NCBI GenBank assembly: GCA_002317215.1
Contig: DCJD01000012.1
Location: 6,579-70,578 of the forward strand
Origin: Bacillales bacterium UBA1709
GTDB taxonomy: Bacteria; Bacillota_I; Bacilli_A; RFN20; UBA1709
Length of the DNA: 64,000 nucleotides
Direction: 5' to 3'
Shown here: in pieces, positions 20,798 to 41,871 of the stretch
Layout: each line of letters opens with the position of its first letter
Position numbering within the stretch: the first letter of the stretch is position 1
Notes under the pieces: generated by a model
What the model was told of the DNA's origin: nothing
The model's database searches: none
The model's input: the letters and a program-made list of their open reading frames with translations, nothing else
Made by a program: the position numbers and the translations under genes

Positions 20798-20821
20798 TTT
20801 TTTGTAATAAATAAAGGATTT

Positions 20822-21762: not shown

Positions 21763-21767
21763 ATTAT

Positions 21768-24048: not shown

Positions 24049-24139
24049 AAAACCTTATTTATTTTAGTAAAGTTAAGAATAAAAGTAAATCAATAGATTT
24101 ATAGATATTTTCTATTATAATAAATAAGGGTGAATAAAT

Positions 24140-24991: not shown

Positions 24992-25431
24992 TGAAACAAA
25001 TTAAAACTAGCATTAATAAGAAAACTAAAACAAGATTATCAATATTAGAATTTATCTTATTTTTAATATTTATATTTTTTATAACTTTGGGAGCTATTAA
25101 TTTTACTCCATTATATACTTTAATAGGTTTTATATTTGGTTTAATATTTATGCTACAAGTTCCACTATTTTTTGATTTCAACAAAACTATTATTCTAAAT
25201 AGTGATGGGATATTTATATATTCTAATCTAAAACTAAAGAAAGATTATAAATATAGCAAGATTAAAAAAGGATATACCACTAGATATCTAAAAGAAGAGT
25301 TTCTTATTTTAGATAATTCTAAGAACGGTATTTTAATTCCTTTATCTAATTTATCTAAAGAAGATAAACATTATTTAAGAGATTTACTTAATAAAATAGA
25401 AATCAAAGATCGTAAAAACTTTCTTCATTAA
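24991..25431 (+). CDS. Small membrane protein (146 aa; two adjacent TM helices and a basic cytoplasmic tail)
   Basis: Hydrophobic segment LSILEFILFLIFIFFITLGAINFTPLYTLIGFIFGLIFML. It is translationally coupled to the upstream gene. Confidence 0.5.
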   Translation: MKQIKTSINKKTKTRLSILEFILFLIFIFFITLGAINFTPLYTLIGFIFGLIFMLQVPLFFDFNKTIILNSDGIFIYSNLKLKKDYKYSKIKKGYTTRYLKEEFLILDNSKNGILIPLSNLSKEDKHYLRDLLNKIEIKDRKNFLH

Positions 25432-25454
25432 TCCTAAAATTTGGACATTTAAAA

Positions 25455-25481
25455 TAGCAGCAAATAATGCTGCTATTTTTA
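25455..25481 (+). terminator. Terminator after the two-gene cassette
   Basis: agcagcaaataatgctgct hairpin followed by a T-run. A -10 element tataat lies directly downstream. Confidence 0.55.
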
Positions 25482-25497
25482 TGTTATAATTTTGAAG

Positions 25498-26766
25498 ATG
25501 GAAAAAGTTTATCTTTGTATTGATTTAAAGTCTTTTTATGCTTCTGTAGAATGTGTTGATAGAGGATTAGATTCAATGACAACTAATCTAGTTGTTGCAG
25601 ATCCTAGTAGAGGTAAAGGAACTATTTGCTTAGCGGTTTCTCCTGCATTAAAAGCATTAGGTGTAAGAAATAGATGTAGAGTATATGAGATACCTACATC
25701 TTTAAAATACATTATGGCTCCTCCTAGAATGAGTCGTTATATGGAGATGAGTTGCCTTATCTATAACATCTACTTAAAGTATATTAGTCAAGATGATATA
25801 CATGTTTATAGTATTGATGAATGTTTCCTAGATATAACAAATTATACTGATATGTATCAAAAAACTCCCATGGAACTAGCTAAAATGATTATAGATGATG
25901 TTTTTAATACAACAGGTATTGTGGCTACATGTGGTATTGGAACTAATCTATTCTTAGCTAAGATTGCTTTAGATATAACCGCGAAACATAGTCCAACTAG
26001 AATTGGGTATCTTGATGAAGAAAAGTTTAAAAAAGAACTTTGGGATCATAAACCAATCACGGATTTTTGGAATATTGCTAGTGGTATATCAACTAGATTG
26101 CTTAAATATAATGTTGATACATTAAGAGGGATTACTAAGTTAGATGAAGATTTATTGTATAAAGAATTTGGAATTAATGCTGAGTTATTAATTGATCATG
26201 CTTATGGCAAAGAAACCACAACTATTTATGATATTAAGCACTATACATCTAAATCAAATTCTTTATCTAAAGGACAAGTTTTATTTGAAGATTACAACTT
26301 TGAAAACGCCAAAATAATCCTAAAAGAAATGATTGATTCAATATGTTTAGATTTAGTTGAAAAACATTTAGTTGCAGGTTCAATAGGCCTTAGTATTGTT
26401 TATTCAAAAAGAGACAATTCTTCTATGTATGGATTAAGAAGTGGTGGTAGTAAAATACTTGGAGAAAGAACAAGAAGTAAGCCTAAATTAAAACAATATT
26501 TTCTTGATTTATATGAAAAATATATTGATAAAAATCAGTTAATTAGAGGTATAAATATTGGCCTTGGAGTATGCGATGAAGCATATAAAACAGTTGATTT
26601 ATTTGAGTCAAATAATGAATTAGAAAAAGAAGATACATTATCAAAAACTATCCTAAAAATCAAAGAAAAACATGGCAAGAATAGTATCTTAAAGGCATTA
26701 GATTTTAAGGATAAAGCAACTCAAAAAGATCGCAATAAATTTATTGGAGGACATAAGGGTGGATAG
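25498..26766 (+). CDS. Y-family (UmuC/UvrX/YqjW-like) translesion DNA polymerase
   Basis: The N-terminus LCIDLKSFYASVECV...LAVSPALKALGV matches the DinB/UmuC palm domain. The ATG lies only about 7 nt after the -10 box, so the transcript is probably leaderless or short-leader. The ORF-track start is a TTG. Confidence 0.8.
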   Translation: MEKVYLCIDLKSFYASVECVDRGLDSMTTNLVVADPSRGKGTICLAVSPALKALGVRNRCRVYEIPTSLKYIMAPPRMSRYMEMSCLIYNIYLKYISQDDIHVYSIDECFLDITNYTDMYQKTPMELAKMIIDDVFNTTGIVATCGIGTNLFLAKIALDITAKHSPTRIGYLDEEKFKKELWDHKPITDFWNIASGISTRLLKYNVDTLRGITKLDEDLLYKEFGINAELLIDHAYGKETTTIYDIKHYTSKSNSLSKGQVLFEDYNFENAKIILKEMIDSICLDLVEKHLVAGSIGLSIVYSKRDNSSMYGLRSGGSKILGERTRSKPKLKQYFLDLYEKYIDKNQLIRGINIGLGVCDEAYKTVDLFESNNELEKEDTLSKTILKIKEKHGKNSILKALDFKDKATQKDRNKFIGGHKGG

Positions 26767-26773
26767 AAATAAA

Positions 26774-27085
26774 ATGACCAATCAAGAAAGAGCAAAACAG
26801 TTTCTTCCTTTTGATGCTTTGGAAGGATATTTTGATATGGTTAATTTATCTACTTATGAGAAATGTGTTAGAAAATCTTTAGATGTTGATGAACAAGAAA
26901 GATTAGCAAAAATTCTATCCTCATTTCATAAAGCTGATATGGTTAGAATTACTTATTATGATATTGATCATTACAAAACAATAACTGGATTAATATCTAG
27001 AATAGATTATGACCATAACACCTTATCTATTGTTAAAACAAAAATATATGTTGAAGATATTATTAGTGCATACAAAGTAGAATAA
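26774..27085 (+). CDS. YolD-like protein (UmuD functional analogue partner of Y-family polymerases)
   Basis: About 104 aa. The N-terminal ERAKQFLPFDAL region resembles YolD-family proteins. SD aagggtgga lies upstream of ATG 26774. It sits immediately after the polymerase gene. Confidence 0.5.
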   Translation: MTNQERAKQFLPFDALEGYFDMVNLSTYEKCVRKSLDVDEQERLAKILSSFHKADMVRITYYDIDHYKTITGLISRIDYDHNTLSIVKTKIYVEDIISAYKVE

Positions 27086-27143
27086 TTTGACTTTTAATAT
27101 TATTAATTTACAATAATAAAAGACTAATAAGGAGGTTTTTAAA

Positions 27144-27743
27144 ATGAAATTAGCAAAAAGAGCATTTACTCTTGTTGAATTATTAGTTGTTATTGCCATA
27201 CTAGGAATTTTGGCTACTGTAGGAGTAGTTAGCTATACATCTTTAACTAAAAAAGGTTATATTTCTAACACTACTGATGAATTAACTCAAGTTAAAAAAG
27301 CTATTACAGCAGTATCATTAGATGCAAACGCACAAGTATATGTTAACGCTGATAATGATGGCTTATCATTCACAGGAAAGAGTCCATATTTCTGTGTTGC
27401 AACTGTTGCTTCACCAACTCCATCAACAATCACAACAGGTGATTATTACACATTGAAGACTGGCGCTACTAAGTTAGGCGAATTCGCTTCATTTGAAATT
27501 GATAATAATGAATTTTATGATCATGCTACTTACTATACATTAGTTGCTAACAACTATGGTTGGGCAGATGTTTATTATGAAGTTTGTGAAATTATTGATA
27601 ATCAAGAAATTGCTGCTAAAATTCAAACACCTACACCAAATGCTCAAGGAAAGATTACTTCAATTAGATATATCTATAATGAAGATTTCTACGGAACTTG
27701 GGATGTAGTAAAAGATACAATTAAAGTAACAGAAGTAAAATAA
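27144..27743 (+). CDS. Type IV pilin / ComGC-like major (pseudo)pilin
   Basis: Class III signal MKLAKRA|FTLVELLVVIAILGILA with Glu5. 199 aa. A strong RBS (aggagg) lies upstream and a strong terminator follows. Confidence 0.8.
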   Translation: MKLAKRAFTLVELLVVIAILGILATVGVVSYTSLTKKGYISNTTDELTQVKKAITAVSLDANAQVYVNADNDGLSFTGKSPYFCVATVASPTPSTITTGDYYTLKTGATKLGEFASFEIDNNEFYDHATYYTLVANNYGWADVYYEVCEIIDNQEIAAKIQTPTPNAQGKITSIRYIYNEDFYGTWDVVKDTIKVTEVK

Positions 27744-27750
27744 TGTACTA

Positions 27751-27786
27751 AAAAAGGAACAAATCATAAAAAATGTTCCTTTTTTG
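27751..27786 (+). terminator. Terminator after the major pilin gene
   Basis: aggaacaaatcataaaaaatgttcct hairpin followed by T5. Confidence 0.7.
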
Positions 27787-27871
27787 TTTGTAAAAAAAAA
27801 AAAAAATAGGCAAAAAGTTTGTAGATTTGAAAATATCTTATATAATAAGATAAAGAAAAGAGAGGGTTTAT

Positions 27872-30547
27872 ATGATTAAAGCTATTAAAAAAGCCTTTAC
27901 TTTAGTTGAACTATTAGTCGTCATAGCCATTTTAGCAATTCTTGCTACTGTCGGTATCGTCTCTTATAGTTCATTTAAAGAAAAAGCACAAGTTTCTAAT
28001 GACGTTGGGTTAGTTACTCAACTAAACAGATTTGTTTACACTAAGACAAGTGAATCAATTACTTATCCTACACCATATTCTTTAATGGAAGATTTGGTTA
28101 ATGATAAAACAGGTATTGACTTATCTGAATTAGACACATTCAAAGGTGATTATCACTACGCATTCAATATTAACAAGGATGTTCAAAAATTCTTCTTAGT
28201 TAATAATAATTATGATGTAGTTGAAAACGGTAATGTTGTAACTAACAAATACAATAAAAATGCTAAATTAGATTTCTTTGTATTCGTTAAAGATAGCGAA
28301 GATGCTATTAAGATGGAACAAGCTGGATATAGCGTCTATCTACAAAACGGTACATATACTAACGAAACATTTGCCTCTTGGGAAGCTGGTCTTGATGTTG
28401 GCGATAATAAAATTAGCGCTATTAACTATGTTAATACCACAGGATCAAATAGAAGTGTTACATTTAGAACAATTGAAGGAACTTTAACTATTAATGCTCC
28501 TTTAGATAATGTTTATCACTATGGTTTTGCCAATGAAGTTATCTTAACTTCAACTGCAACCACTTCATATCATGAACTTGGTTCTACTCCAATTGTTTCA
28601 ATTAAAAGAGGAAGACTTGCTCTAGAATCAGGTTGTTCAGTACAAGTTGTTCACTTTGCATCTACTGAGGTTGCTAATGAACCTATGTATGATGATATTA
28701 GAGTAGCTATTGCTGATGGTGTAGATTTACCAATCTTTGCTAGAGATCGCGTTGAAATTCCAGAACATCAAATCAATAAGATGCTAGTCGTTGAATTACA
28801 ACATGGTTTAGATCCAGAATCATGTGATAAAGATAAGATTTATTTATATAAATACGGTATTGTTGAGCAAATGATCGTTGAAGAAGTTAAAACTTCTGTT
28901 GAACGTTATGCTGATGAAGAGGCTGTTAATGATGATTCTCAACAATGTGCAATTGATCTTGCAAACTGTTGGAGATATAACGGTCAAGATTATAAATACG
29001 GCGAATACAAAACTGATAAAACCGCTCAAGATGGTGTAATTAAAGTTTATCTTGATGGTACAGAAGAAGCTGATAAAACTGCTATTGCAGATGCCGAAGT
29101 TACTAATACTGGTATGGATTTCGAAGCAGCTACTAAGGTTGCCGCATTCGCAGGTGGTACTGGAACAGAAAATGACCCATACTTAATCTCAAATCCAACT
29201 CAATGGAATAACATTTATCCAATTCTACATGAAACAACACCTCTTAAGAAAATTACTTATTTCAAATTAGTTTCAGATGTTGATTTCACTGATTATTATA
29301 TTGATAACAGTCCAGTTGAAAATGATTATATTTATATCAATATGGATGGAAACGGACATGAACTTAAAAATGTAAGTAAATTTGCTCCTAATTCATCTGA
29401 ATCATTATTCAATTTATGTTGGAATATTACTTTATCTAACATGACTATTGACTTTGAAATAGTTTCTGATGGACGTAGCGGATATGTTGGTGGTATTAGT
29501 AAAGAACTAGGATGTACTAACCCAGATGATAAATCTGATAAAGCAGTATTTACTAACATTACAACAACAGGATCAATTATTAGAGATATAAGTGGTTTTA
29601 CTGGCGTATATACTTCTGAATTATATTGTAATGCTACATTCAATAATTGTGCTAACCACACATCACTTGTTTCTACAAGTTATGTTGCATCTATTGCTCC
29701 ACACTGTATGGCAGGTGGAAGTCAAATCAGTCTAACATTTAATGGATATTATAACTTTGCTCCAATGTATGGTGCACAAGTTGGTGGTATCTTTGCAATG
29801 TATAGTGGCGACATCAAACCACTTGTTACTGGTGGTGGAGTTGTTAACTATGGAAAGATATATTCAACAACACCATATCATGGTTGTTTCGATGCTAATG
29901 GTAACACATTCTATGATTCTAATAATGCAGTAAAAGATGTTAAAGGCGCAGAAAGTGCAACTACTTTAACTGTTACTCCTACAACTATTACATTAGGAGA
30001 ATTTGGCGATACTATTAAAACTGCCGCAGTTGCAAATGCTACTAGATATGCAATTAATATGTCATTTGCTACAGGACACTATGACTACACTCCTTCTTCT
30101 GGATGGGGCGGTGGATTCTATAGAACTCTTTCTAAAACTTATAGTGCTGAATATATGGCAGCACATAATTATGAATTCACAAACATGATTCACACATATA
30201 TTGGTGAAGTTAAAAATGATAAGCAAGATTTCTGGAGTAATGATCCAGTTGCTTATAACGGATTATATGTTAGTGACGATTTCTCAGTTGAAACTGACGG
30301 TGTAGAAATTATTGATACTTTCACAAATGGATTATATTTAATCTCATATGAAGGCAAGACTTTCTACTACTATAATTTAGATGCTAAGAGAGCTTTATTG
30401 GATAGTTCAATTCAAGAAGCTCGTAGTACAGGTAAATTCTATGTAACTGTTACTGTAACAGCTTATAAAGATAATACTATCATTGGTTATCGTTCTACTT
30501 CTTATTACTATACCCCAGATCAATGGGATGGATTTATTGCAGACTAG
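27872..30547 (+). CDS. Giant modular pilin (891 aa) with a prepilin-type N-terminus
   Basis: MIKAIKKA|FTLVELLVVIAILAILATVG class III signal. The C-terminal region of about 850 aa is rich in N/T/Y/G. Confidence 0.75.
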   Translation: MIKAIKKAFTLVELLVVIAILAILATVGIVSYSSFKEKAQVSNDVGLVTQLNRFVYTKTSESITYPTPYSLMEDLVNDKTGIDLSELDTFKGDYHYAFNINKDVQKFFLVNNNYDVVENGNVVTNKYNKNAKLDFFVFVKDSEDAIKMEQAGYSVYLQNGTYTNETFASWEAGLDVGDNKISAINYVNTTGSNRSVTFRTIEGTLTINAPLDNVYHYGFANEVILTSTATTSYHELGSTPIVSIKRGRLALESGCSVQVVHFASTEVANEPMYDDIRVAIADGVDLPIFARDRVEIPEHQINKMLVVELQHGLDPESCDKDKIYLYKYGIVEQMIVEEVKTSVERYADEEAVNDDSQQCAIDLANCWRYNGQDYKYGEYKTDKTAQDGVIKVYLDGTEEADKTAIADAEVTNTGMDFEAATKVAAFAGGTGTENDPYLISNPTQWNNIYPILHETTPLKKITYFKLVSDVDFTDYYIDNSPVENDYIYINMDGNGHELKNVSKFAPNSSESLFNLCWNITLSNMTIDFEIVSDGRSGYVGGISKELGCTNPDDKSDKAVFTNITTTGSIIRDISGFTGVYTSELYCNATFNNCANHTSLVSTSYVASIAPHCMAGGSQISLTFNGYYNFAPMYGAQVGGIFAMYSGDIKPLVTGGGVVNYGKIYSTTPYHGCFDANGNTFYDSNNAVKDVKGAESATTLTVTPTTITLGEFGDTIKTAAVANATRYAINMSFATGHYDYTPSSGWGGGFYRTLSKTYSAEYMAAHNYEFTNMIHTYIGEVKNDKQDFWSNDPVAYNGLYVSDDFSVETDGVEIIDTFTNGLYLISYEGKTFYYYNLDAKRALLDSSIQEARSTGKFYVTVTVTAYKDNTIIGYRSTSYYYTPDQWDGFIAD

Positions 30548-30558
30548 GAGAGATTATT

Positions 30559-31203
30559 ATGATATTTACAATGATAGATAAAATGTTTGAAATTCAAGGA
30601 TCTAACTTATTATTACTAGCAATTCTTTGTTCGCTAGTATCAGTAATGTTAATCATACTTATGATTCTTGGATTAGTTTCCGACAAAAAGATTAAAACTG
30701 AAAAGAAAGCTTTAACAGATGAAGCTGAGTATTATCAAAAACGTTATGAAAAAAGCGTTGAAGTTAATACATTAGTTGATGGTATTGTTTCTGCACTTGA
30801 AAAAGGCAAACCATTACCTGAAATTGAAGGTTACGTTTATAAACCTAAAAATGCTTCTAAAAAAGATACAAGACAATATGATCAATGTCTTGCAGAACTC
30901 CCAAAAGTTAAAAGACAAATCATTGAAGAATTTACTAAAGCTTGCAATGAACTTGAAGGAATTTCATCTAAAAAAGCTGGAAGAAAATTAACATATAAGT
31001 TAGGAAAATCCACAATTGCCGATATTACAATCAAGTTTGATACTGCTGTTATTAAAATCTATGTTCAAAATAAAGAATTATTAGATCGTGAAATGGTACT
31101 TAAACCATTATCATTCGATGTAACAAAATATCTAAATGTAGATAATTTAATCTTAGCTGTTAAACAAGCACATATTGTATTCGCTCTTGAAGCAAATAAA
31201 TAA
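30559..31203 (+). CDS. Bitopic membrane protein of the pilus operon (possible assembly / alignment component)
   Basis: ATG 30559 after RBS aggagag. One N-terminal TM helix (LLLLAILCSLVSVMLIILMILGLV) followed by a charged soluble domain. Confidence 0.45.
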   Translation: MIFTMIDKMFEIQGSNLLLLAILCSLVSVMLIILMILGLVSDKKIKTEKKALTDEAEYYQKRYEKSVEVNTLVDGIVSALEKGKPLPEIEGYVYKPKNASKKDTRQYDQCLAELPKVKRQIIEEFTKACNELEGISSKKAGRKLTYKLGKSTIADITIKFDTAVIKIYVQNKELLDREMVLKPLSFDVTKYLNVDNLILAVKQAHIVFALEANK

Positions 31204-31214
31204 TAAAATAAAAA

Positions 31215-31246
31215 TTAGGCATTTATATTATAAATGCCTTTTTTAT
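31215..31246 (+). terminator. Intra-operon terminator / attenuator
   Basis: aggcatttatattataaatgcct hairpin followed by T6. Confidence 0.6.
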
Positions 31247-31268
31247 TGAAATAGTGTATAATTTTATT

Positions 31269-31652
31269 ATGAAGAAAAAAACAAAAGGTTTTACACTAGT
31301 AGAAGTATTGGCTGCGATTAGCGTTGCGGCCATCCTTTTTGGACTTATTAGTTATAGTATGCTTTTTATTAATACAACAAGTAGTGAAGCGATTAGTGAA
31401 AGCGGAAGTAGCTATGCTATAAGAAAAATAAAAGATTATATTATAAGTCAACGAATTGATGATGATAAGTTTAATTATAGTGAGAATACTTTGTTTTATG
31501 ATTCATCTGTTATATTTGAAAACCTACCATTTGAAAGTATGAATATTGATATCGAAAATCATCTTGATGATAATTCAACATGGTGTACTATTGCATATTC
31601 AAGTAATAATAGTAGTGATTCAATTAATTTTGTTGTTTATATAGGAGGCTAA
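31269..31652 (+). CDS. Minor pilin / pseudopilin
   Basis: MKKKTKG|FTLVEVLAAISVAAIL prepilin signal. ATG 31269, whereas the ORF-track start is a GTG. Confidence 0.7.
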   Translation: MKKKTKGFTLVEVLAAISVAAILFGLISYSMLFINTTSSEAISESGSSYAIRKIKDYIISQRIDDDKFNYSENTLFYDSSVIFENLPFESMNIDIENHLDDNSTWCTIAYSSNNSSDSINFVVYIGG

Positions 31653-31653
31653 T

Positions 31654-32433
31654 ATGAAGGATTGTTTTACAGTATTAACATTTAATAATGTCGGTAATGC
31701 TTTTATTTCAGTTAAAACTTACAAGCGATTAATTAGTGGTAAAGATGAGTTTATTAATGAAGATTATCTTGCATTAGATGATTTACAATTAAAAAACGGT
31801 TTACCAATTAACGCAAGTTACATTGCTGAATTTATTGAAGGGCTTGATATAAATGATTATGATTTATATCTATGTTTAAATTGCGATGAAATCTTTAAGA
31901 TTACCACTTCTATGCCTCATATTTCATTATCAAAAGCTAAAAAGGTTGTTGGTCTTGATATTAAAACTAACTACCCAGACTTAGTTGAGAATTATGATAA
32001 GAAACAATATATTTATGCTACTTCTCAAGGATACTTATTTTATGATTATTTAATACCAAAAAGAATTATTGATTTCTTTAAAAAGATTTTTAAAGAAAAG
32101 AATATTAAGTATCAAAAATATGTTTTATATCCTGAATTCTTATTAAAGACTAGTGGTATTAAGGATAAAGAATATGTTTATGCTTTTAATGAGCATGGTC
32201 TTGGTACATTAATTTTAAATTATAACGGAGCATATTCTTATTCTACTTTTGCTTATAATTTTAATGCTCTAAACCAAACATATTATCAAATGGTTAGCAA
32301 ACATCAATACGAACTAGAAAAGAAAACTTTAGATAAAGTATACTGCACTTTTGGTGTTATTGGATTTAGTGCAAAAGCAGAATATAAAGAGCCATTTAAA
32401 AAATATAAATTTGAATTAAAAGGATTGAAATAA
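31654..32433 (+). CDS. Hypothetical protein within the pilus operon
   Basis: 259 aa with no TM helix or recognised motif. It is tightly packed between pilin genes. Confidence 0.4.
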   Translation: MKDCFTVLTFNNVGNAFISVKTYKRLISGKDEFINEDYLALDDLQLKNGLPINASYIAEFIEGLDINDYDLYLCLNCDEIFKITTSMPHISLSKAKKVVGLDIKTNYPDLVENYDKKQYIYATSQGYLFYDYLIPKRIIDFFKKIFKEKNIKYQKYVLYPEFLLKTSGIKDKEYVYAFNEHGLGTLILNYNGAYSYSTFAYNFNALNQTYYQMVSKHQYELEKKTLDKVYCTFGVIGFSAKAEYKEPFKKYKFELKGLK

Positions 32434-32825
32434 TGAAAAAAGCGATGACACTTGTTGAAGTACTAGTTGCATTAACAATTTTCTTGTTAATCTTTACTTT
32501 AACATTGTCTATTTATGCTTCAATTAGTATTATTTCCAAAAGGCAAAAACAATATACCTACTTTGAATCAATCTGTTTAGATATCGACAAATATTATGAT
32601 TCATATGATAAACAATGGGATATATATTACTATAATCATAATGCTGAATTTGGAACGGTTATTTATTATTCATCCTCATATCAAGTATCTCAAAATAGCG
32701 ATGCTAGATATGAACTAGAATATAAATATGATATTGATGATCATTTAGTTGTTAGCATTAAAGATATTGTGAACGATAACTATGTTATTAAAGATTTAAA
32801 TTATGGAGTATCAAAAGCGAGATGA
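32433..32825 (+). CDS. Minor pilin / pseudopilin
   Basis: MKKA|MTLVEVLVALTIFLLIF prepilin signal with Glu5. It ends on a TGA stop. Confidence 0.7.
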   Translation: MKKAMTLVEVLVALTIFLLIFTLTLSIYASISIISKRQKQYTYFESICLDIDKYYDSYDKQWDIYYYNHNAEFGTVIYYSSSYQVSQNSDARYELEYKYDIDDHLVVSIKDIVNDNYVIKDLNYGVSKAR

Positions 32826-32995
32826 AAACTAAGAAAGCTAGTGCATTACTTGTTACATTCATTGTCTGTCTTGTTCTATTAATCTTAGTTGTTGGAACAC
32901 TTTCATTAGTTGTTCGTTATAATCTTGATGTTAATAGAAGAAGTGATTTACTTGAAAATAAAGTATACAACGTTATAAAAGGAGAAATATGGTAA
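32822..32995 (+). CDS. Small pilin-like membrane protein (57 aa), ComGG-like, without Glu5
   Basis: MKTKKASALLVTFIVCLVLLILVVGTLSLVV. Absent from the ORF track because it is under 60 aa. Its start overlaps the previous gene (ATGA). Confidence 0.4.
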   Translation: MKTKKASALLVTFIVCLVLLILVVGTLSLVVRYNLDVNRRSDLLENKVYNVIKGEIW

Positions 32996-33762
32996 ACATT
33001 ATTATTGGTTTATTTATATTTGTTATTGGAACTTGCTTCGCAAGCTTCTTTGGCGTTGTTATAAGTAGAGTACCAAACAAAATGTCAATTGTTAAACCTG
33101 ATAGTCATTGCTTCAATTGCGATCATGAACTTAAATGGTATGAGAATATTCCTTTGATTTCTTATATAGTATTAAAAGGAAAATGCAGTAATTGTAATAC
33201 TAAGATTGGTATTTTCTCGTTTATCTATGAATTAGTTGGTGGATTAGTTCCATTATTTATATTTATTAAGTTTGGAATTAATGTTGAATCAATATTAATA
33301 ATGGTTATTAGTTTAATTCTTTTATTAATGGCCGGATACGACTATAAAACAAATACTATATTAGATATTATGTGGATGGTATTTGGAATATTAGTATTAA
33401 TGTTATTTATGTATCGTTCTATATTCTTATTTATTCCATTTAAAAACTACCTAATTAGTTTTGCTATTGGATCAATTATATTTATATTTATTAAGTTATT
33501 TGGTTTATTTATTTTAAAGATGGATATTTTAGGAACTGGCGATGTCATTGTTTTTGGACTATCTTGTTTATTATTTAATCCACTTGGTATTTTAATTAGT
33601 TTAATAATTAGTTGTGTTCCAGGATCAATTATTGAATTAATTAAATTATCAAAATCTAAAGAAGAAAAAGAAATTGCCTTTCTTCCTTATTTAGCATTTG
33701 GAATATATATCGCAATTCTTTTTACTCCATTTATTACTAATTTATTATTTGAGGTGATCTAA
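32989..33762 (+). CDS. pilD: Prepilin peptidase (A24 family, PilD/ComC)
   Basis: N-terminal tetracysteine CFNC...CSNC zinc motif followed by polytopic membrane helices. Confidence 0.8.
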   Translation: MVNIIIGLFIFVIGTCFASFFGVVISRVPNKMSIVKPDSHCFNCDHELKWYENIPLISYIVLKGKCSNCNTKIGIFSFIYELVGGLVPLFIFIKFGINVESILIMVISLILLLMAGYDYKTNTILDIMWMVFGILVLMLFMYRSIFLFIPFKNYLISFAIGSIIFIFIKLFGLFILKMDILGTGDVIVFGLSCLLFNPLGILISLIISCVPGSIIELIKLSKSKEEKEIAFLPYLAFGIYIAILFTPFITNLLFEVI

Positions 33763-33763
33763 T

Positions 33764-34969
33764 ATGCCATTTTATAGATGCAAAGTATATAACCAACTTG
33801 GAAAACAAATCGTTACTTATAAAGAAGCAACTGATGAAACAAGTTTAAAAGCTAATTTAAAAACCGATTGTTTGATTTTGATTAATGCTAGTGTTGTCAA
33901 AGAAAAAGAACCAAATGTATTTTTTAGTGTTTCTAGTAAAATTAAAAGAAGCGAAGTTATTATGTTTTTAAGACAATTCTCCGTTTTAATTAGTAGTAGC
34001 GTTTCTATAGCTGATGCATTAAGTAGTTTAAAATCTCAAAGATATTCTAAACCATTCATGAAAGTATTAATGGAGATATATCGTGATGTAATGAGTGGAA
34101 AACTATTATCAGAAGCTTTTGGAGTTCATCCTAAAGTATTCCCAAGATTTTTCGTTGAAATGGTTGCAATTGGTGAAGTATCAGGATCTCTTGATAATGT
34201 ATTAAAGCAAATGGCAGATTATTATGAGAAAGATAATAAAATCAAAGGGAAAGCTAAAGCTGCTTTAACTTATCCTTCTATATTATTTGTCATGATTAAT
34301 ATTGTTATTATATTTATGAGTTTTGTTATCTTGCCTCAATTTGAAAATATGTTTATTGAATTTGGAGGGACTGTTCCAAAATTTACTACAACAATATTAG
34401 ATATTGCTTACTATATTCGTACAAATCTATTCTATATTATTGTTGGCTTACTTACTTTCTTCTCTTTATTATATTTATATTTTCAAACTAAATCAGGCAA
34501 ATATTCCAAAGATAAGATTGCCTTACATTTACCTTTTGTAGGGAGAATTAATAGAGCAATTATTACATCAAGATTTACTAAAGCATTCGTCATATTATTA
34601 AACAGTGGTATGAATATAAGCGATTGTATGGAAAACTTAAAAAGAGTATTAACTAACCAAGTTTTCTCTAAGAAATTTGATTATGCTATTACGGAAGTTA
34701 AAAGAGGTAAATCGATTGCAAGATCAATTGAGAATACAGATATGTTCCCAAGCATCTTAATTGAAATGATTAAAGTTGGAGAAAAAAGTGGCAACTTAGA
34801 AGAAGTATTAAATTCAACTTCAGGTTTCTATGATGATGAAGTTGAAAGAAGTATATCCAAAGCAACGGCGGCACTTGAACCTATTATGATATTATTCCTA
34901 GGTGCGGTAGTAGTTGTTGTACTATTAAGCGTTTATATACCAATGCTTGACTTAATGAATCAAATTTAG
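33764..34969 (+). CDS. pilC: Type IV pilus / T2SS platform protein (GspF/PilC/ComGB)
   Basis: 401 aa with two T2SSF repeats, each followed by TM segments. Confidence 0.8.
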   Translation: MPFYRCKVYNQLGKQIVTYKEATDETSLKANLKTDCLILINASVVKEKEPNVFFSVSSKIKRSEVIMFLRQFSVLISSSVSIADALSSLKSQRYSKPFMKVLMEIYRDVMSGKLLSEAFGVHPKVFPRFFVEMVAIGEVSGSLDNVLKQMADYYEKDNKIKGKAKAALTYPSILFVMINIVIIFMSFVILPQFENMFIEFGGTVPKFTTTILDIAYYIRTNLFYIIVGLLTFFSLLYLYFQTKSGKYSKDKIALHLPFVGRINRAIITSRFTKAFVILLNSGMNISDCMENLKRVLTNQVFSKKFDYAITEVKRGKSIARSIENTDMFPSILIEMIKVGEKSGNLEEVLNSTSGFYDDEVERSISKATAALEPIMILFLGAVVVVVLLSVYIPMLDLMNQI

Positions 34970-34981
34970 GAGGGTTTAAAT

Positions 34982-36658
34982 ATGATAATCAATGAAAGAT
35001 TTGCAAAATACCTAGAGACAAATAGCTCAATTAGTCCAGAAATGATCAATAAATATCTTGATATTTCAGATAAAAATGAGACGCCAATTTATTTTGAAAT
35101 TATTAAAGAACCTAAAGTTTCTGAAGAAGAAGTATATCGTTTACTTGCTACATTCTTTAAAACCGAATATCGTTATGTTCAATTATCAGAATTAAATTTC
35201 CCATTAATTGATAAATTTCCTCGTGCAAAATTAATCGAATTTAAAACTGTTCCAATTGAAGAAAATGAAGATAGTGTTTCTTTTATTCTTTCAAACCCAT
35301 TAAGATTTGAAGATTTACAAGAATTTAAAGCAATTACTCCAAAACAAATTAGATGCTATGTTTCAACAACTTCTAATATTAATGATTTAGTTTCTTATAT
35401 TGATAACAAAGCACAACAAAGAAGTGTTATGGAAGGTTTGGATAGCGATTCTAATTTTAAAGATAGCGAGAATAATGGTAATAAAACTGTTGAGATTGAT
35501 GCTCCTGTTATTAAACTTTGTGACTCTATTTTAAAAGATGCAATCAGTAGAAAAGCTAGTGATATTCATATTGAGCCTTTCCAAGAAGACTTATTATTAA
35601 GATTTAGAATAGATGGTAAATTAAGCGTTGTTGATCATCTAAACTTGAACATGTATCAAGCAATTTTAGCTCGTTATAAAATTATGGCCGAGATGAATAT
35701 TGCTGAACGTCGTGTTCCCCAAGATGGTAAAATTAATATGAGTATAAGCGGGGTTGAATTTGACTTCCGTGTCTCAACAATACCTACAATCAATGGTGAG
35801 AAAATAGTTATAAGAATATTCAATAACTCCTTATCTACAGCCAATATTAATAGTTTAGGATATAATGAAAATGAACAAAAATTAGTTCTAAACATGATTT
35901 CAAGACCACATGGAATAATATTACTTACTGGTCCAACTGGATCTGGTAAATCAACATCATTATATACATTTTTAAGACACCTAAATAAAGAAGATACTAA
36001 TATTATTACGGTTGAAGATCCAGTTGAAAATGTTATTGATGGTATAAATCAAGTTCAAGTTAATCCAAAAGCAAATATGACTTTTGCTAATGCATTAAGA
36101 TCTATATTAAGACAAGACCCTAATATTATAATGATTGGTGAAATTCGTGATGAAGAAACAGCTGCCATTGCAACTCGTGCTGCTATTACTGGTCACTTAG
36201 TTTTATCTACATTACATACCAATAGTGCAACTGGAGTTGTATCAAGACTTGTTAATATGGGAGTTGCCCCTTATTTAGTTGCTGATAGTTTACTTGGAGC
36301 AATCTCTCAAAGACTTGTTAGAAGATTATGCCCAAAATGTAAAAAGGAACACTTAACTACTAAAGCTGAAATGGAAATATTAGGTTTAGATAAACCTACT
36401 AAAATTTGTTCTCCAGTAGGCTGTCCTGCATGTAACAATACAGGATATAGTGGTAGAACTGGTGTATTTGAGATTATGGTTTGCGATGATAGTGTTCGTA
36501 GTGCAATTATGAACGATCATTTCTCAACTGAATTATTAAATAATGTTGTAGAAGGTAAAATGGTTTCTTTAATTGATAATTGTAAAGAAAAGATTTTACA
36601 AGGAATTACAAGCATTGAAGAATACAATGAATTATCTGAGGTTGTTAAAACAAAATAA
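34982..36658 (+). CDS. pilB: Type IV pilus assembly ATPase (GspE/PilB/ComGA)
   Basis: Walker A LLTGPTGSGKST, Asp box, His box, and a C-terminal tetracysteine CPKC...CPAC. Confidence 0.85.
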   Translation: MIINERFAKYLETNSSISPEMINKYLDISDKNETPIYFEIIKEPKVSEEEVYRLLATFFKTEYRYVQLSELNFPLIDKFPRAKLIEFKTVPIEENEDSVSFILSNPLRFEDLQEFKAITPKQIRCYVSTTSNINDLVSYIDNKAQQRSVMEGLDSDSNFKDSENNGNKTVEIDAPVIKLCDSILKDAISRKASDIHIEPFQEDLLLRFRIDGKLSVVDHLNLNMYQAILARYKIMAEMNIAERRVPQDGKINMSISGVEFDFRVSTIPTINGEKIVIRIFNNSLSTANINSLGYNENEQKLVLNMISRPHGIILLTGPTGSGKSTSLYTFLRHLNKEDTNIITVEDPVENVIDGINQVQVNPKANMTFANALRSILRQDPNIIMIGEIRDEETAAIATRAAITGHLVLSTLHTNSATGVVSRLVNMGVAPYLVADSLLGAISQRLVRRLCPKCKKEHLTTKAEMEILGLDKPTKICSPVGCPACNNTGYSGRTGVFEIMVCDDSVRSAIMNDHFSTELLNNVVEGKMVSLIDNCKEKILQGITSIEEYNELSEVVKTK

Positions 36659-37581
36659 TGCAAGATATTACTAGATTAAGTAAAGAAGAATTAAACAAAA
36701 AACTTATTGAGATAGAGAATTTATCTGACGAAGAAAGTTTATTATTGAAAGCTAAAATATATTATTCTTTGAATAATATAGATAAAGCTTTATTAACAAT
36801 AATTGATTGTTTAAATAAATCTAATAAGTATTATTATGAAGCAATTCTTATTAAGATAGATTGTTTAGAAGCTAAAAAGAAATATATCGAAGCTTTAAAG
36901 GTTTTAGATGAAGAATTATCAATGCCTTATATACCAAATGATTATGAACTTAAATTTAAAGAAAAATATAAATATTTATTAAGCTTTTTTAATCAATCTT
37001 CATCTGAAAATACCCTAGATAATATGGATGATAAAAGTCTAGGGGAATTATTAGTTAAAACTGATAACTTAGAGATTTTAGAAGGTATTATTGAACAATT
37101 ATTTAAAAGAAATGTTCGAAACATTCTTCCATATATTAAAGAATTTTTATTGGATGAAAATAAAAATAATATGATGAAATCATTTATAATAGTTGTTTTA
37201 AATGAACAGAAAATTGATGAGCAGATTCCAGTTGTTAAAAATGATATGAATCTAACCATTGTTCCATCTGATTTAACATCATATCAAAATTTAGATGCCT
37301 ATCCTAAAATATTAAATATTATTGATGAATTAAACACAAATCATAATGTTACTATTGATAATATTGCAAAGATAGGATTAGAAAGTGCTATTCTATATAA
37401 TTATCCTTTAGAAATTGATTTTGATGAATATATTTATTACGGAATTGGATTATATATTAAAGCCAATAAATCATTAAATATAGAAATAGATTCTAATGCA
37501 CTAATAAACAAATATCATCTTAGTAGTAAAACCCTCACATACTACTTACATTTAATTGAAAATATAACCAATCTATGTTAA
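36658..37581 (+). CDS. Hypothetical protein (307 aa), last gene of the pilus operon
   Basis: Helical and repeat-like (possibly TPR-like). It is coupled to the pilB stop (TAATG). Confidence 0.35.
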   Translation: MQDITRLSKEELNKKLIEIENLSDEESLLLKAKIYYSLNNIDKALLTIIDCLNKSNKYYYEAILIKIDCLEAKKKYIEALKVLDEELSMPYIPNDYELKFKEKYKYLLSFFNQSSSENTLDNMDDKSLGELLVKTDNLEILEGIIEQLFKRNVRNILPYIKEFLLDENKNNMMKSFIIVVLNEQKIDEQIPVVKNDMNLTIVPSDLTSYQNLDAYPKILNIIDELNTNHNVTIDNIAKIGLESAILYNYPLEIDFDEYIYYGIGLYIKANKSLNIEIDSNALINKYHLSSKTLTYYLHLIENITNLC

Positions 37582-37619
37582 TATAACATAGTTTTAGAAA
37601 ATTAAGGAGATTTATAAAT

Positions 37620-38930
37620 ATGAAAATTACATTAAAAAACGAAAAATCAGTCGTAACAGCTAATGTTGTTTGTGAAGAAAAAGAATGGGCTGATGCACAA
37701 GAAAAAGCATATGAAAAGCTTGCTAAAAATGTTGAAGTAAAAGGTTTTAGAAAAGGCCAAGCTCCACTTGAAATGGCTAAGAAACATATTCCAGGACAAA
37801 GTATGTTTGATGAAGCTTGTGATGCTTGTTTACAAAATGCTTATATTAAAGTTGTTGAAGAAAATAAACTAGACGTTTTATTAAGACCTGAAGTTAAAAT
37901 TAACAAAATGAGTGATAAAGAATTTGAATTTGATTTAGTTATCACTGTTAGACCAGAAGTTAAGTTAGGTGAATATAAAGGACTAAGTGTTGAAAAAGAA
38001 GAAGTTAAAGTAAGCGATGAAGAAATTAATGCTGAAATTGAAAATATTAGAAAACAAAATAGCGTAATCAGCGTCAAAGAAGATGGAATTATCGCTAAAG
38101 GTGATGTTGTTAAATTTGATTTCGAAGGTTTCGTAGATGGCAAAGCATTTGAAGGCGGTAAAGCAACTGATTTTGAATTAGAAATCGGCTCAAATCAATT
38201 TGTTCCTGGCTTTGAAGATCAAATGGTTGGCTTAAAGAAAGGCGAGAAAAAAGATATCGTAATCACTTTCCCAGAAAATTACACCAAAGAATTAGCTAAT
38301 AAAGAAGCTACATTTAAATTAAATATTAAAGAAGTATCTATTAAAACAATCCCAGATGTTAATGATGATTTAGCATTAGATGCTAATATTGAAGGTGTTG
38401 AAACTCTTGAACAATTAAAAGAGCACATCAAACACGATATTAAACATCATAAAGGCCACGAAGAAGAAAACAAAGCTTTTGATAAATTAGTTGATATGAT
38501 TGTTGAAAAAGCCACAATTGATTTACCAGATAGTTTAGTTGCTGCTGATTTAGTTCATGCTTTTGATGATTATAAAGCTCGTGTTGAGCAAAACGGTATT
38601 CCATTTGATAAATATATGGAATTAACAAATACTACTGAAGATAAGATTAAAGAACACTTAAAACCTGAAGTAGTTAGAAATTTAAAAGTTGTATTAACAA
38701 TTGGTGAAATTGCTAAACAAGAAAAAATTTCTGTTGAAGATAAAGATATTGAAGCAGAATATGAAGCAATTGCAAAACAATACAATATGGAAGTTTCTAA
38801 AGTTAAAGAAGCTTTAAAAGCTCAACAAGAACAATTAAGCAATGAAATCTTCTCAAGAAAAGTAACAGAATTTATTAGAAATAATAATACTATTATTGGC
38901 GAGAAGTGTGAGTGCGAAGATTGCAAGTAA
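37620..38930 (+). CDS. tig: Trigger factor
   Basis: N-terminal ribosome-binding domain with GFRKGQAP, and an FKBP domain. The unusual C-terminal tail is GEKCECEDCK. Confidence 0.9.
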   Translation: MKITLKNEKSVVTANVVCEEKEWADAQEKAYEKLAKNVEVKGFRKGQAPLEMAKKHIPGQSMFDEACDACLQNAYIKVVEENKLDVLLRPEVKINKMSDKEFEFDLVITVRPEVKLGEYKGLSVEKEEVKVSDEEINAEIENIRKQNSVISVKEDGIIAKGDVVKFDFEGFVDGKAFEGGKATDFELEIGSNQFVPGFEDQMVGLKKGEKKDIVITFPENYTKELANKEATFKLNIKEVSIKTIPDVNDDLALDANIEGVETLEQLKEHIKHDIKHHKGHEEENKAFDKLVDMIVEKATIDLPDSLVAADLVHAFDDYKARVEQNGIPFDKYMELTNTTEDKIKEHLKPEVVRNLKVVLTIGEIAKQEKISVEDKDIEAEYEAIAKQYNMEVSKVKEALKAQQEQLSNEIFSRKVTEFIRNNNTIIGEKCECEDCK

Positions 38931-38941
38931 TAGATGAATTA

Positions 38942-38963
38942 AAAGACGCATTGCGTCTTTTTG
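38942..38963 (+). terminator. Terminator after tig
   Basis: aaagacgcattgcgtcttttt hairpin. Confidence 0.6.
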
Positions 38964-38984
38964 CTAAATTAAGGAGGTAATTAT

Positions 38985-41300
38985 ATGGAAGAAAATGAAT
39001 CATTATTTTTGCCAGTTATTGCTACAAGAGGAATAGTTTTATTCCCAAATAATGAAAGCAGTTTGGAAATTGGAAGAAAAAAATCAATGATTGCGGTTGA
39101 AATATCTAACGCAGCCAATGATTCAAATGTTTTAATCGTCTCTCAAAAACATCCTGAAGAAAATGATCCTAAGTTAGATAATTTATATATGGTTGGAAGC
39201 TTATGTAAAATTGAAACCATTAAAAAGAACGCCGATAAATCATATCGCATATTAATTAAAGCTATCGATAGGGTAAAGATTGAGAATTATTATGAGCAAG
39301 ACGGAACTATTTATGGTGAATTTAAAGTATTTAAGAGCGAACATGGGGATTCAAATGAAGAGTTAGCTTTAATTAATACTCTTGTAAAATATTTACAAGA
39401 TTTTATTAATGGTTCTAAAGTAATTACCGCTCCTATGTTAAATAAACTTACTGAATCTCATGATGGGTCAACACTAAGTGATGCTATTGCTCAAATTGTT
39501 CCTCTTTTATTTACTATTAAACAAGAATTATTAGAAGAAAAAGAAATTAACAAAAGACTTGATAAACTTTTAATTTCTTTAAATGATTTAAATACTGTAA
39601 GTAATATTGAACAAGATATTGATAAGAGATTAAAAGAACGTTTAGATAATTCTCAAAAAGAATATTATTTAAGAGAAAAGATTAAAACCATTAAAGAAGA
39701 ACTTGGTGAAGATGAAGAGGATGATCCAGAATCTATTTTAGATAAGATAGAAAAAGAACCATATCCAGAAAATATTAAGAAAAAAATCAAAGATGAATTA
39801 AAGAAACTTGATATGATGCAACCTTCTTCTCCAGAAGCTAGTGTTATTAGAAATTATATTGATTGGTTAATTAATATTCCTTGGTATCAAACAACTTCTG
39901 ATAATGATGATATTAATAATGTCGAAAAAGTATTAAACGATGATCATTATGGCTTAGAAAAACCAAAAGAAAGAATATTAGAATATCTTGCTGTTAAAAA
40001 GTTAACTAGTTCTTTAAAAGCTCCTATTATTTGTTTCTCAGGTCCTCCTGGTACTGGAAAAACAAGTCTTGCCTTATCTATTGCTAAAGCTTTAAATAGA
40101 AAATATGTTAAGGTAAGCTTGGGTGGTGTTAGTGATGAAGCCGAAATAAGAGGACATCGAAGAACTTATATTGGATCTATGCCTGGAAGAATTATTCAAG
40201 GAATGAAAAAGGCAGGGGTAACTAATCCAGTATTTATTCTAGATGAAATAGATAAATTGGGTAAAGACTATAAAGGAGATCCTTCTAACGCTTTACTTGA
40301 TGTATTAGATCCAGAACAAAACAAAGCGTTCTCAGATAATTTTATTGAGGAAACTTATGATTTAAGTAACGTTTTATTTATTGCTACTGCAAACTATTTA
40401 GCAAACATTCCAGCCCCATTACTTGATAGATTAGAAGTTATAGAATTATCTTCATATACTGAACAAGAAAAACTAGAGATTGCTAAACAATATTTGATTA
40501 AAAAGCAAATTGAACAAAATGGTGTTTCAAAACTAGATTTTGAGGATGAATCTTTATTATATTTAATTAGAGGATATACTAGGGAATCAGGAGTAAGACA
40601 ACTAGAAAGACAAATTGGCTCTATTGCTAGAAAAATAGCTGTTAAATCATTGAAAAATTCAAAAACTAGTCATACTATAACCAAAGATAAGATTGTTGAT
40701 TTATTAGGAAAACCATTATTTGATTATGGCAAGAAGGAAAAGAAAGACCAAGTTGGTTTAGTAACTGGTCTTGCTTATACTCAATATGGTGGAGATATAT
40801 TACCTATTGAAGTGGTATATTTTGAAGGTAAAGGTAATTTAATAATTACTGGTAATCTTGGAAATGTAATGAAAGAATCAGCTTCTATTGCCTTAGGACA
40901 TGTAAAGGCTAATGCTAAAAAATATGGAATAGATCCAGAAATATTTGAGAAAATTGATATTCATATCCATTGTCCAGAAGGAGCGATACCAAAAGATGGG
41001 CCAAGCGCTGGATGTGCTTTAACTACTGCTTTAATTTCGGCTTTATCTAGTAAAAAAGTTCGTAGTGATATTGCTATGACTGGAGAAGTTACATTAAGAG
41101 GAAATGCTTTGCCAATTGGTGGTTTAAGAGAAAAATCTATTGCAGCACATAGATCTGGAATTAAAGAAATATTTATTCCAAAAGATAATGAAAAAGATAT
41201 TGAAGATATTCCATTATCTGTAAGAAATGAATTAAAGATAAATCTTGTTAGCCATATTGATGAGATTATCCCAAATGTTTTGATTGATGAATCTAAATAA
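38985..41300 (+). CDS. lon: ATP-dependent Lon protease
   Basis: GPPGTGKTS Walker A and the PKDGPSAGCA serine-protease active site. Confidence 0.95.
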   Translation: MEENESLFLPVIATRGIVLFPNNESSLEIGRKKSMIAVEISNAANDSNVLIVSQKHPEENDPKLDNLYMVGSLCKIETIKKNADKSYRILIKAIDRVKIENYYEQDGTIYGEFKVFKSEHGDSNEELALINTLVKYLQDFINGSKVITAPMLNKLTESHDGSTLSDAIAQIVPLLFTIKQELLEEKEINKRLDKLLISLNDLNTVSNIEQDIDKRLKERLDNSQKEYYLREKIKTIKEELGEDEEDDPESILDKIEKEPYPENIKKKIKDELKKLDMMQPSSPEASVIRNYIDWLINIPWYQTTSDNDDINNVEKVLNDDHYGLEKPKERILEYLAVKKLTSSLKAPIICFSGPPGTGKTSLALSIAKALNRKYVKVSLGGVSDEAEIRGHRRTYIGSMPGRIIQGMKKAGVTNPVFILDEIDKLGKDYKGDPSNALLDVLDPEQNKAFSDNFIEETYDLSNVLFIATANYLANIPAPLLDRLEVIELSSYTEQEKLEIAKQYLIKKQIEQNGVSKLDFEDESLLYLIRGYTRESGVRQLERQIGSIARKIAVKSLKNSKTSHTITKDKIVDLLGKPLFDYGKKEKKDQVGLVTGLAYTQYGGDILPIEVVYFEGKGNLIITGNLGNVMKESASIALGHVKANAKKYGIDPEIFEKIDIHIHCPEGAIPKDGPSAGCALTTALISALSSKKVRSDIAMTGEVTLRGNALPIGGLREKSIAAHRSGIKEIFIPKDNEKDIEDIPLSVRNELKINLVSHIDEIIPNVLIDESK

Positions 41301-41871
41301 TACAAAGTTTATTATCAGTTGTCCAAATTCTACTCAATGGATTAATGATAATAAAAAAGAAATTGTTATTCTTGGTAAATCTAATGTTGGTAAATCAACT
41401 TTTATCAATATGATTACTAATAATAAAAATCTAGCTAAAACCAGTTCAACTCCTGGCCATACTAGATTATTAAATTTCTTTGATGTTGATAACTTATGGC
41501 GAATTGTTGATGCACCAGGATATGGCTATAGTGCTGTCAGCAAAACGATGGATTTTGATTTTTCCAAGATGATGGAAGAATATTTTGATACTAGAAAAAA
41601 TCTTGTTGGAGCAATTTTGTTAATCGATTCTAGAAGAGGGAGTAGTGAAGATGATAAATTAATGCTCGATTTCATTACTAATCATAATATTCCTTTTATT
41701 ATCGTAGCAACTAAATGCGATAAATTAAACCAATCTGAAAGATCTAAATTATCTAATAAAATACTAGATAATCTAAGACTAAATCATGACACTAAAATTA
41801 TTAATAGTTCAAATACTAAAAGAGATTGGATTGATATAGTTGTTCAAAGAATTGAATATATCTTAAAATAA
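41287..41871 (+). CDS. engB: Ribosome biogenesis GTPase EngB/YsxC
   Basis: GKSNVGKSTFIN G1 motif and DAPGYG G3 motif. The lon-ysxC synteny matches Bacillus. ATG 41287, whereas the ORF-track start is a TTG. Confidence 0.85.
   Translation: MNLNNTKFIISCPNSTQWINDNKKEIVILGKSNVGKSTFINMITNNKNLAKTSSTPGHTRLLNFFDVDNLWRIVDAPGYGYSAVSKTMDFDFSKMMEEYFDTRKNLVGAILLIDSRRGSSEDDKLMLDFITNHNIPFIIVATKCDKLNQSERSKLSNKILDNLRLNHDTKIINSSNTKRDWIDIVVQRIEYILK

Follow-up and report, generated by a model that had tools for sequence, protein, structure and literature searches.

We examined a 64-kb window (64,000 nucleotides of contig DCJD01000012.1 from Bacillales bacterium UBA1709) in which a type IV filament locus lies at 27144-36658, with all its genes on the + strand. 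It encodes four prepilins with class III signal peptides, a 57-residue non-canonical pilin-like peptide, a prepilin peptidase (PilD), a platform protein (PilC) and a full-length assembly ATPase (PilB). A first-pass annotation had listed eleven co-directional genes here, and all 11 open reading frames (ORFs) were confirmed in position, order and strand. Its view that the type IV filament locus is complete and intact, starting with the pilins and ending with the ATPase, is likewise borne out by gene content and motifs. The evidence consists of sequence-derived predictions throughout.

Gene content and expression signals

The assembly genes have the features of the generic type IV filament superfamily. 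The PilB/GspE-type ATPase (34982..36658, +, 558 residues) matches T2SSE with 455 bits and carries an N-terminal MshEN domain. Its Walker A (GPTGSGKS), Asp box (EDPVE), Walker B (IIMIGEIRD), His box (TGHL) and tetracysteine (CPKC/CPAC) motifs are intact. The PilC/GspF platform (33764..34969, +, 401 residues) has two T2SSF domains (204.7 bits). PilD, a predicted prepilin peptidase/N-methyltransferase (32989..33762, +, 257 residues), matches A24_N_bact (101.7 bits) and Peptidase_A24 (26.8 bits) and retains CFNC/CSNC, D118 and GTGD185. The N_methyl motif of the superfamily is found four times.

The architecture had been called ComG-like. Against equivalog models, the ATPase scored 547 bits with GspE (cut-off 630, residues 87-548), 543 bits with PilB (cut-off 676, residues 7-550) and 284.3 bits with ComGA (NF041000 equivalog, cut-off 300), the last over residues 182-447 only. 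The platform aligned over its full length with GspF (309 bits, cut-off 424) and PilC (277 bits) and over residues 66-399 with ComGB (160.3 bits, cut-off 240). For the pilins, GspG gave 34 bits against a cut-off of 89 and ComGC 14-17 bits against a cut-off of 75. No named system reached its equivalog cut-off. Motor and platform score far higher on PilB/GspE and PilC/GspF than on ComGA/ComGB, and the ComG-like label was dropped; it applies to no more than the small minor pilins and the lack of PilT and PilMNO. By its predicted products the locus is a type IV filament system with a motor of the type IVa pilus (T4aP)/type II secretion system (T2SS) type.

The reported lack of PilT, PilM, PilN, PilO and a secretin held up, as none was detectable with Pfam and NCBIfam models in the locus or the other window ORFs scanned. 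The window encodes one T2SSE ATPase only. No locus ORF matched PilM, PilN, PilO, GspC, GspL, GspM or a secretin in either collection, and ComEA, ComEC and DprA are absent from the 64-kb window.

Four proteins of 199, 891, 132 and 130 residues have the N_methyl/TIGR02532 motif, in agreement with the four F/M-T-L-V-E N-termini described before, each preceded by a leader of 4-12 residues. A six-frame regular-expression scan of the whole window recovered exactly four prepilin N-termini, those named here on the + strand, with no credible fifth. Their α1 N-termini are of the T4a type, matching PpdD, GspG and PilA models and T4a pilins in the PDB. The 199-residue protein (27144..27743, +; N_methyl 30.8 bits, TIGR02532 31.1 bits; leader MKLAKRA/FTLVE), whose α1 helix resembles PpdD/GspG, is the putative major pilin, as we infer from its first position and its own terminator. 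The 891-residue giant pilin (27872..30547, +; leader MIKAIKKA/FTLVE) has the N_methyl motif and was modelled with AlphaFold2 (AF2). One minor pilin (31269..31652, +; N_methyl 29 bits; leader MKKKTKG/FTLVE) has 127 residues from an ATG or 132 from a GTG at 31254, with weak ComGF/GspJ-type matches. The other (32433..32825, +, 130 residues; leader MKKA/MTLVE) reaches 20.2 bits with N_methyl, below the Pfam cut-off of 21.2, and passes TIGR02532 (19.9 against 16.3); its best matches, ComGF and ComGE, are all sub-threshold.

Three further products complete the locus. The 57-residue peptide (32822..32995, +) had been described as pilin-like. Its basic N-terminus, hydrophobic helix and conserved position agree with this, while it has no N_methyl match and no Glu5; by analogy it would be a ComGG/GspK-like subunit. 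A 259-residue protein with no transmembrane segment and no signal peptide, predicted to be cytoplasmic, is encoded between the two minor pilins (31654..32433, +). The third is a bitopic membrane protein (30559..31203, +, 214 residues, or 226 from 30523) with one transmembrane segment and a predicted N-out/C-in topology. It has no family match in Pfam, NCBIfam or PHROG and no homologue in related loci; it is probably lineage-specific, and a role in the core machine is unlikely. As a PilN/PilO equivalent the 226-residue form was rejected, since no related locus has a homologue and the others encode unrelated N-terminally anchored proteins. The start at 30559, like that of the minor pilin at 31269, is the likelier one according to Joint Genome Institute (JGI) gene calls.

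Genes from 31269 to 36658 abut or overlap. In the intergenic region 5' of the major pilin gene, a promoter-like TTGACT-16-TACAAT (27087..27114, +; 10/12 consensus matches) is followed by a ribosome-binding site, AAGGAGG; it is a consensus match only, and the scan as a whole was not enriched over shuffles. A hairpin resembling an intrinsic terminator, with a 13-bp stem and a U-run, follows the major pilin gene (27749..27786, +; -12.4 kcal/mol, z = -4.1, 0/200 shuffles as stable). Another, with a 10-bp stem and a U-run, lies after the bitopic gene and before the assembly genes (31207..31247, +; -14.0 kcal/mol, z = -4.2, 0/200 shuffles). These consensus and energy predictions suggest that the major pilin is transcribed by itself, the giant pilin together with the bitopic protein, and the assembly cassette as a third unit. 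Between the major pilin terminator and the giant pilin gene, 15 consecutive A (27792-27806) precede a possible promoter, TTGTAG-16-TATAAT. Homopolymer tracts can drive phase variation in Mollicutes.

The seven-gene cassette and the 259-residue family

The order minor pilin, 259-residue family, minor pilin, mini-peptide, PilD, PilC, PilB recurs in related bacteria. We compared the window with its six closest genome loci (L002-L007), using tblastn and ORF maps, and with three loci (L075-L077) from look-ups of 259-residue clusters. The cassette was seen in eight loci from metagenome-assembled genomes of Acholeplasmatales/Bacilli: the window, L002, L003, L004, L005, L075, L076 and L077. All six closest genome loci have the same order of pilins, then PilD, PilC and PilB. 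Identities in L002-L004 are 59-60% for PilB, 55-60% for PilC and 43-46% for PilD, and the PilB of L005 is 48% identical. L002-L005 encode a 259-residue homologue between the two minor pilins and a peptide of 58-64 residues (131 in L005) before PilD. Among the 259-residue clusters with enough context, 3/3 (L075-L077) show the full cassette, their PilB having both MshEN and T2SSE.

The smaller subunits are conserved in place as well. Homologues of the 127/132-residue minor pilin occupy the same position in L002, L004 and L075-L077, and those of the 130-residue minor pilin, 35-38% identical, do so in L002-L004. An ORF of 58-85 residues with the features of the 57-residue peptide is found at its position in L002, L003, L004, L075, L076 and L077. 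Ala and Gly alternate at position -1 of the leaders among the related pilins of L003 and L004, as they do in the window.

In the relatives, no PilM, PilN, PilO or PilT was detectable up to 10 kb from PilB; PilM, PilN and PilO are also absent from the Pfam annotations of L075-L077, and no locus retrieved has a PilM. A tblastn search with PilB gave one match per locus in L002-L007, whereas L008 and L009, which are clostridial, gave two each, to PilB and PilT, and have the order PilB-PilT-PilC. A metagenome scan based on PilC returned one partial locus.

The gene order had been termed inverted. That order is real, and because it recurs across related loci it is the fixed order of a distinct cassette in this clade and no local rearrangement. 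Conservation of the cassette in eight loci argues for purifying selection on the whole set. Its genomic surroundings differ among the relatives; in L004, for example, they include ispDF and rpsB-tsf. An insertion sequence-type transposase lies within the L004 locus (4804-5573), between the giant pilin and the assembly cassette, and the L076 cassette has genes for a serine recombinase and a tyrosine integrase at its sides (1-1498, 18075-19010). These are hints of cassette mobility. Directly 3' of PilB, L002 (10344-12267) and L076 (16082-17978) encode a LytTR response regulator and an AgrC-like histidine kinase (HATPase_c_5). This pair, not found in the window, suggests that in some lineages quorum or peptide signals control the cassette.

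The 259-residue protein, previously listed as an unknown, is not incidental to the locus but the signature component of the cassette. An exhaustive HMMER search of 1.84 billion representatives gave a family of 47 clusters, and in the loci inspected its members are always encoded between two minor pilins and upstream of PilD-PilC-PilB. Our family hidden Markov model (A4) matches L002-L005 (4/4), of which tblastn found only L003 and L004. In these two loci the domain is fused behind an N-terminal transmembrane helix and a charged linker; from the charges on either side of the helix, an N-out/C-in topology is predicted, with a membrane-tethered cytoplasmic domain. The 259-residue protein itself has no Pfam, NCBIfam, PHROG or PDB sequence match, and profile searches with all 47 clusters found no Pfam family or PDB sequence match, giving noise only. 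A single-sequence word-indexed search returned only the query, and a profile of seven positional homologues retrieved only six near-identical, distant proteins of the L007 type.

In L007 (5317-6687) and in P0002-P0007, the ORF at the position of the 259-residue protein runs in frame into a prepilin motif (FKRGFSIIEVVVSL). Such proteins of about 450 residues are kept in at least 6 clusters and are not matched by the A4 model; the PilB of L007 is 42% identical. The ORF could be a genuine fusion or contain an internal start.

The giant pilin, the flanks and the host

The giant pilin begins with a pilin module and a conserved β-rich region (residues about 10-270), followed by a disordered linker (284-417), a β-helix (about 420-680) and a C-terminal β domain modelled with less confidence. 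The AF2 model, built with 117 sequences, is confident for 10-270, which comprises the α1 helix, the globular pilin module and the β-rich region, and mostly confident for about 420-680 (block values of the predicted local distance difference test, pLDDT, about 70-97). Foldseek matched the model to 3n6z (E 1.8e-8), which identifies the module in the model as a right-handed parallel β-helix. We found no Pfam domain beyond the leader.

More than 272 proteins of 500-860 residues share its first 270 or so residues, nearly all with N_methyl, and the family, with more than 270 members, occurs in gut metagenomes. The C-termini of these relatives vary, some having GLUG, Peptidase_M26_N, Beta_helix or Pectate_lyase_5 domains. 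In structure the β-helix resembles BACOVA_03286 (3n6z, 'putative IgA1 protease') and the N-terminal β-helix of the streptococcal M26 IgA1 proteases (7uvk, 7jgj, 6xja). Unlike these, the giant pilin has its module joined to a pilin, and with no HExxH motif no protease activity is implied. We considered a protease and rejected it, as HExxH is absent from the entire 891-residue protein.

The protein qualifies as a modular type IV pilin. It is documented that pilins can serve adhesion by carrying an added binding module, as do Streptococcus sanguinis PilB (vWA module) and PilC (lectin module) and enterotoxigenic Escherichia coli (ETEC) CofB (PMC8179133, PMC9934059). Like these, the giant pilin combines a class III signal peptide and a pilin module with grafted modules, presumably at the tip. 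It differs in that the graft is a GLUG-type right-handed β-helix following a conserved N-terminal region of about 270 residues and a disordered linker of about 130 residues. At 891 residues it is also larger than the largest modular pilin in the InterPro survey of Raynaud et al., which has 860 (PMC8179133).

Downstream, the first base of the 11th ORF (36658-37581) is also the final base of the pilB stop codon, and tig, lon and engB come after this ORF. Its match to DUF3196 (PF11428) scores 28.0 bits where 28.2 are required (E 2.1e-6, 222/264 model positions), and the precomputed JGI match is 'weak'. We take DUF3196 to be the MG237/MPN330 family of Mycoplasma, presumably also encoded 5' of tig and lon in M. 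genitalium. No homologue stands beside PilB in the related loci, and with the adjoining tig, lon and engB this makes the gene a housekeeping neighbour and not the member of the pilus locus for which it had been taken. A role as a pilus component was rejected on the borderline DUF3196 match and the lack of a counterpart in the relatives. We found no terminator-like site between pilB and tig (36658-41871), so the pilus assembly genes may be transcribed through into the housekeeping genes.

Upstream, the flank at 20677-27085 starts with a tRNA-Arg gene (20677-20753). About 70 bp away lies a 38-residue N-terminal fragment of a single-stranded DNA-binding protein (SSB; 20822-20938, -; phrog_44, E 9.5e-10). 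Then come a 152-residue HELMH protein with a weak phage metalloprotease match, a GNAT acetyltransferase, a CitMHS/ArsB-type transporter and two unknown ORFs, and the flank ends with a Y-family polymerase and YolD (phrog_1268, E 2.8e-73). Its G+C content falls to 0.22-0.25, and the stretch from 20.75 to 27.1 kb looks like a decayed element integrated at a tRNA gene. The pilus genes had been assigned to the same accessory region. The ssb remnant and the polymerase do adjoin them upstream, but the pilus genes themselves show no clear break in G+C content or skew.

The rest of the window is ordinary chromosome (ileS, lspA, mutS2, uvrC, tig, lon, engB, valS, obg, ruvAB, secDF, relA and hisS) with a G+C content of 28%. 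Its division cluster (4358-8328) contains mraZ, rsmH, an ftsA-like gene, ftsZ and sepF, uninterrupted by peptidoglycan genes, as had been reported, and this is a Mollicutes-type arrangement. The ftsA-like gene has only faint MreB/FtsA matches. The proteins most closely related to its PilB carry the labels Acholeplasmatales, Acholeplasmataceae or Bacilli. From these genes the host would be an Acholeplasma-like bacterium, possibly wall-less, and some GTDB Acholeplasmatales retain peptidoglycan genes (PMC12786226). The window sequence was also found in contigs of JGI metagenome 3300001598 and of two Logan assemblies, and even Lon and FtsZ from the window cluster with no other protein at 90% identity. 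A T-box leader (44278-44486) precedes valS and an L21 leader (48232-48303) precedes the rplU operon, both at Rfam gathering level. Just upstream of the left end of the window, a Wadjet-type defence system (JetA, JetB and the SMC-like JetC) lies beside rpmF and yceD (locus L071, 1-2511).

Proposed function and relation to known systems

With moderate confidence we read the locus as encoding a functional type IV pilus on the chromosome, one of a compact subtype specific to the lineage, predicted here from its genes and most likely used for adhesion through a β-helix module at the tip. Five pilin-like proteins would be inserted into a single cell membrane. PilD would cut the short basic leader of the four canonical prepilins after Ala or Gly(-1) and methylate Phe or Met(+1). 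A hexameric PilB would drive the PilC platform to polymerise the 199-residue major pilin, while the two small minor pilins, the 57-residue peptide without Glu5 and the 891-residue pilin would prime assembly and finish at the filament tip. There, at a location that like the ligand binding we infer, the β-helix of the giant pilin might bind, or possibly cleave, a glycan or protein ligand. The 259-residue cytoplasmic protein would be a dedicated accessory of motor or platform, probably in place of the missing PilM(-N-O); it may be a PilM-like scaffold, a hypothesis for which there are weak fold hints only. The lack of a secretin and of wall-crossing parts is consistent with one membrane and probably no wall. 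With no PilT in the locus, retraction, if any, would be PilT-independent.

Several observations weigh against this reading. The -1 residue is Ala and not the canonical Gly in 3/4 leaders (27144-27170, 27872-27898 and 32433-32447). β-Helix modules are found in enzymes too, and the one at the tip could act as a depolymerase and not in adhesion. The AF2 model of the 259-residue protein is poor (pLDDT 39), with a weak alignment containing the six L007-type prepilin-motif fusions. In hhalign its family is co-linear with E. coli HofM (259 residues), our stand-in for PilM, at a probability of 8% and matches the FtsA-like protein of the window at 0.3%. HofM itself had no match to PilM in the PDB, and tblastn in plasmids returned enterobacterial HofM only. 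The 64 kb read are part of a genome whose remainder could encode PilT, PilMNO or competence proteins. The organism has been seen in metagenomes only, and its locus only as a sequence.

A competence pseudopilus of the Com type, the DNA-uptake option of the first-pass annotation, in which a short filament captures DNA for a ComEA/ComEC importer encoded elsewhere, is an unlikely alternative, though several features recall it. PilT and canonical PilMNO are absent, as in Com systems (PMC6916266), the best NCBIfam matches of the 130- and 132-residue minor pilins are sub-threshold ones to ComGF and ComGE, and the 57-residue peptide without Glu5 recalls ComGG. The ComM clade is monophyletic in the work of Denise et al. 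(PMC6668835). Against a Com-type pseudopilus, ComGA, ComGB and ComGC remain at 284, 160 and 14-17 bits where 300, 240 and 75 are required, and the long N-terminal region of the ATPase lies outside the 267-position ComGA model, with PilB and GspE scoring far higher. The window has no ComEA, ComEC or DprA, and ComEC-type proteins have been reported lost in Acholeplasmataceae (PMC6299819). The major pilin has 199 residues and is accompanied by the 891-residue β-helix pilin. For the latter we know of no counterpart in a comG operon.

We think it still less probable that the cassette is a horizontally acquired passenger, possibly silent or decaying, beside a degraded integrated element. The decayed-looking flank from 20.75 to 27.1 kb (tRNA-Arg, the ssb fragment, the weak metalloprotease, the Y-family polymerase and YolD) would suit such an origin, as would the differing contexts in relatives with the recombinase and integrase flanking L076 and the transposase inside L004. 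Every ORF and catalytic motif is intact, however, and the gene overlaps are preserved. The pilus genes resemble the leading-strand genes around them in G+C content (0.25-0.33) and skew, the pilB stop codon overlaps with the beginning of the housekeeping gene that follows, and the seven-gene order persists down to 48% PilB identity. A T2SS-like pseudopilus that pushes proteins off the cell surface and forms no long adhesive pilus has the top NCBIfam scores on its side (GspE 547, GspF 309, GspG 34) and weak GspI/GspJ-type minor pilins, yet we regard it as very improbable because these scores are under their cut-offs (630, 424 and 89 bits), PilB nearly equals GspE (543 against 547 bits), secretin, GspC, GspL and GspM are absent from the locus and a single-membrane cell has no periplasm as a secretion source.

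Beyond a functional pilus, we put forward tentatively that the cassette is an undescribed type IV filament subtype of Acholeplasmatales-like and related Bacilli. The 259-residue protein would have replaced PilM-N-O and PilT would have been lost, giving a minimal machine in a wall-less single-membrane cell whose giant β-helix tip pilin attaches to or digests host glycans or partner microbes. To our knowledge, Mollicutes-type bacteria are usually regarded as having no pili, and we found no description of type IV pili in Acholeplasmatales in the literature searched. A machine with no PilM, PilN, PilO, PilT, secretin or wall-crossing parts would be a useful natural test of which components pilin polymerisation needs, a question raised for monoderm systems (PMC6916266). 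The 259-residue family is a concrete candidate for a new assembly factor, and the giant β-helix pilin family extends the catalogue of modular pilins past what domain databases detect.

Among known systems, the monoderm T4aP of S. sanguinis (pil), Clostridium perfringens and C. difficile likewise come from a single locus with no secretin and have a long PilB-type ATPase, PilC and a PilD of the bifunctional type. They share the T4a-like α1 N-terminus and the use of modular minor pilins as adhesins (PMC6916266, PMC8179133). The monoderm T4aP is defined by PilM, PilN, PilO and the retraction ATPase PilT (PMC6916266). In contrast, we detected neither a PilM-PilN-PilO subcomplex nor PilT in the locus, nor PilT in the window. 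Here the order is also reversed, with pilins first and then PilD, PilC and PilB, and the 259-residue family stands between the minor pilins.

The Com (ComG) pilus of Bacillus and Streptococcus is similar as a simple monoderm machine with small minor pilins and a last subunit lacking Glu5, and it too has no PilT or PilMNO. The locus differs from it in having no equivalogs of the ComGA, ComGB or ComGC type, in the extra N-terminal domains of its ATPase and in the inclusion of PilD. Its order is opposite to comGA-comGG, its major pilin is large, it encodes a giant β-helix pilin and no DNA-uptake genes lie nearby. The T2SS provides the top-scoring models for the ATPase, the platform and the major pilin α1 and, like the locus, has a four-member minor set including a member without Glu5 (compare GspK). 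The locus has no GspE, GspF or GspG equivalogs, no secretin (GspD) and no GspC, GspL or GspM, and the cell has no outer membrane. The core machine itself is ordinary. As predicted from its genes, the locus is a genuine and intact variant of a known machine, conserved among its relatives and carried by an unusual group of hosts.

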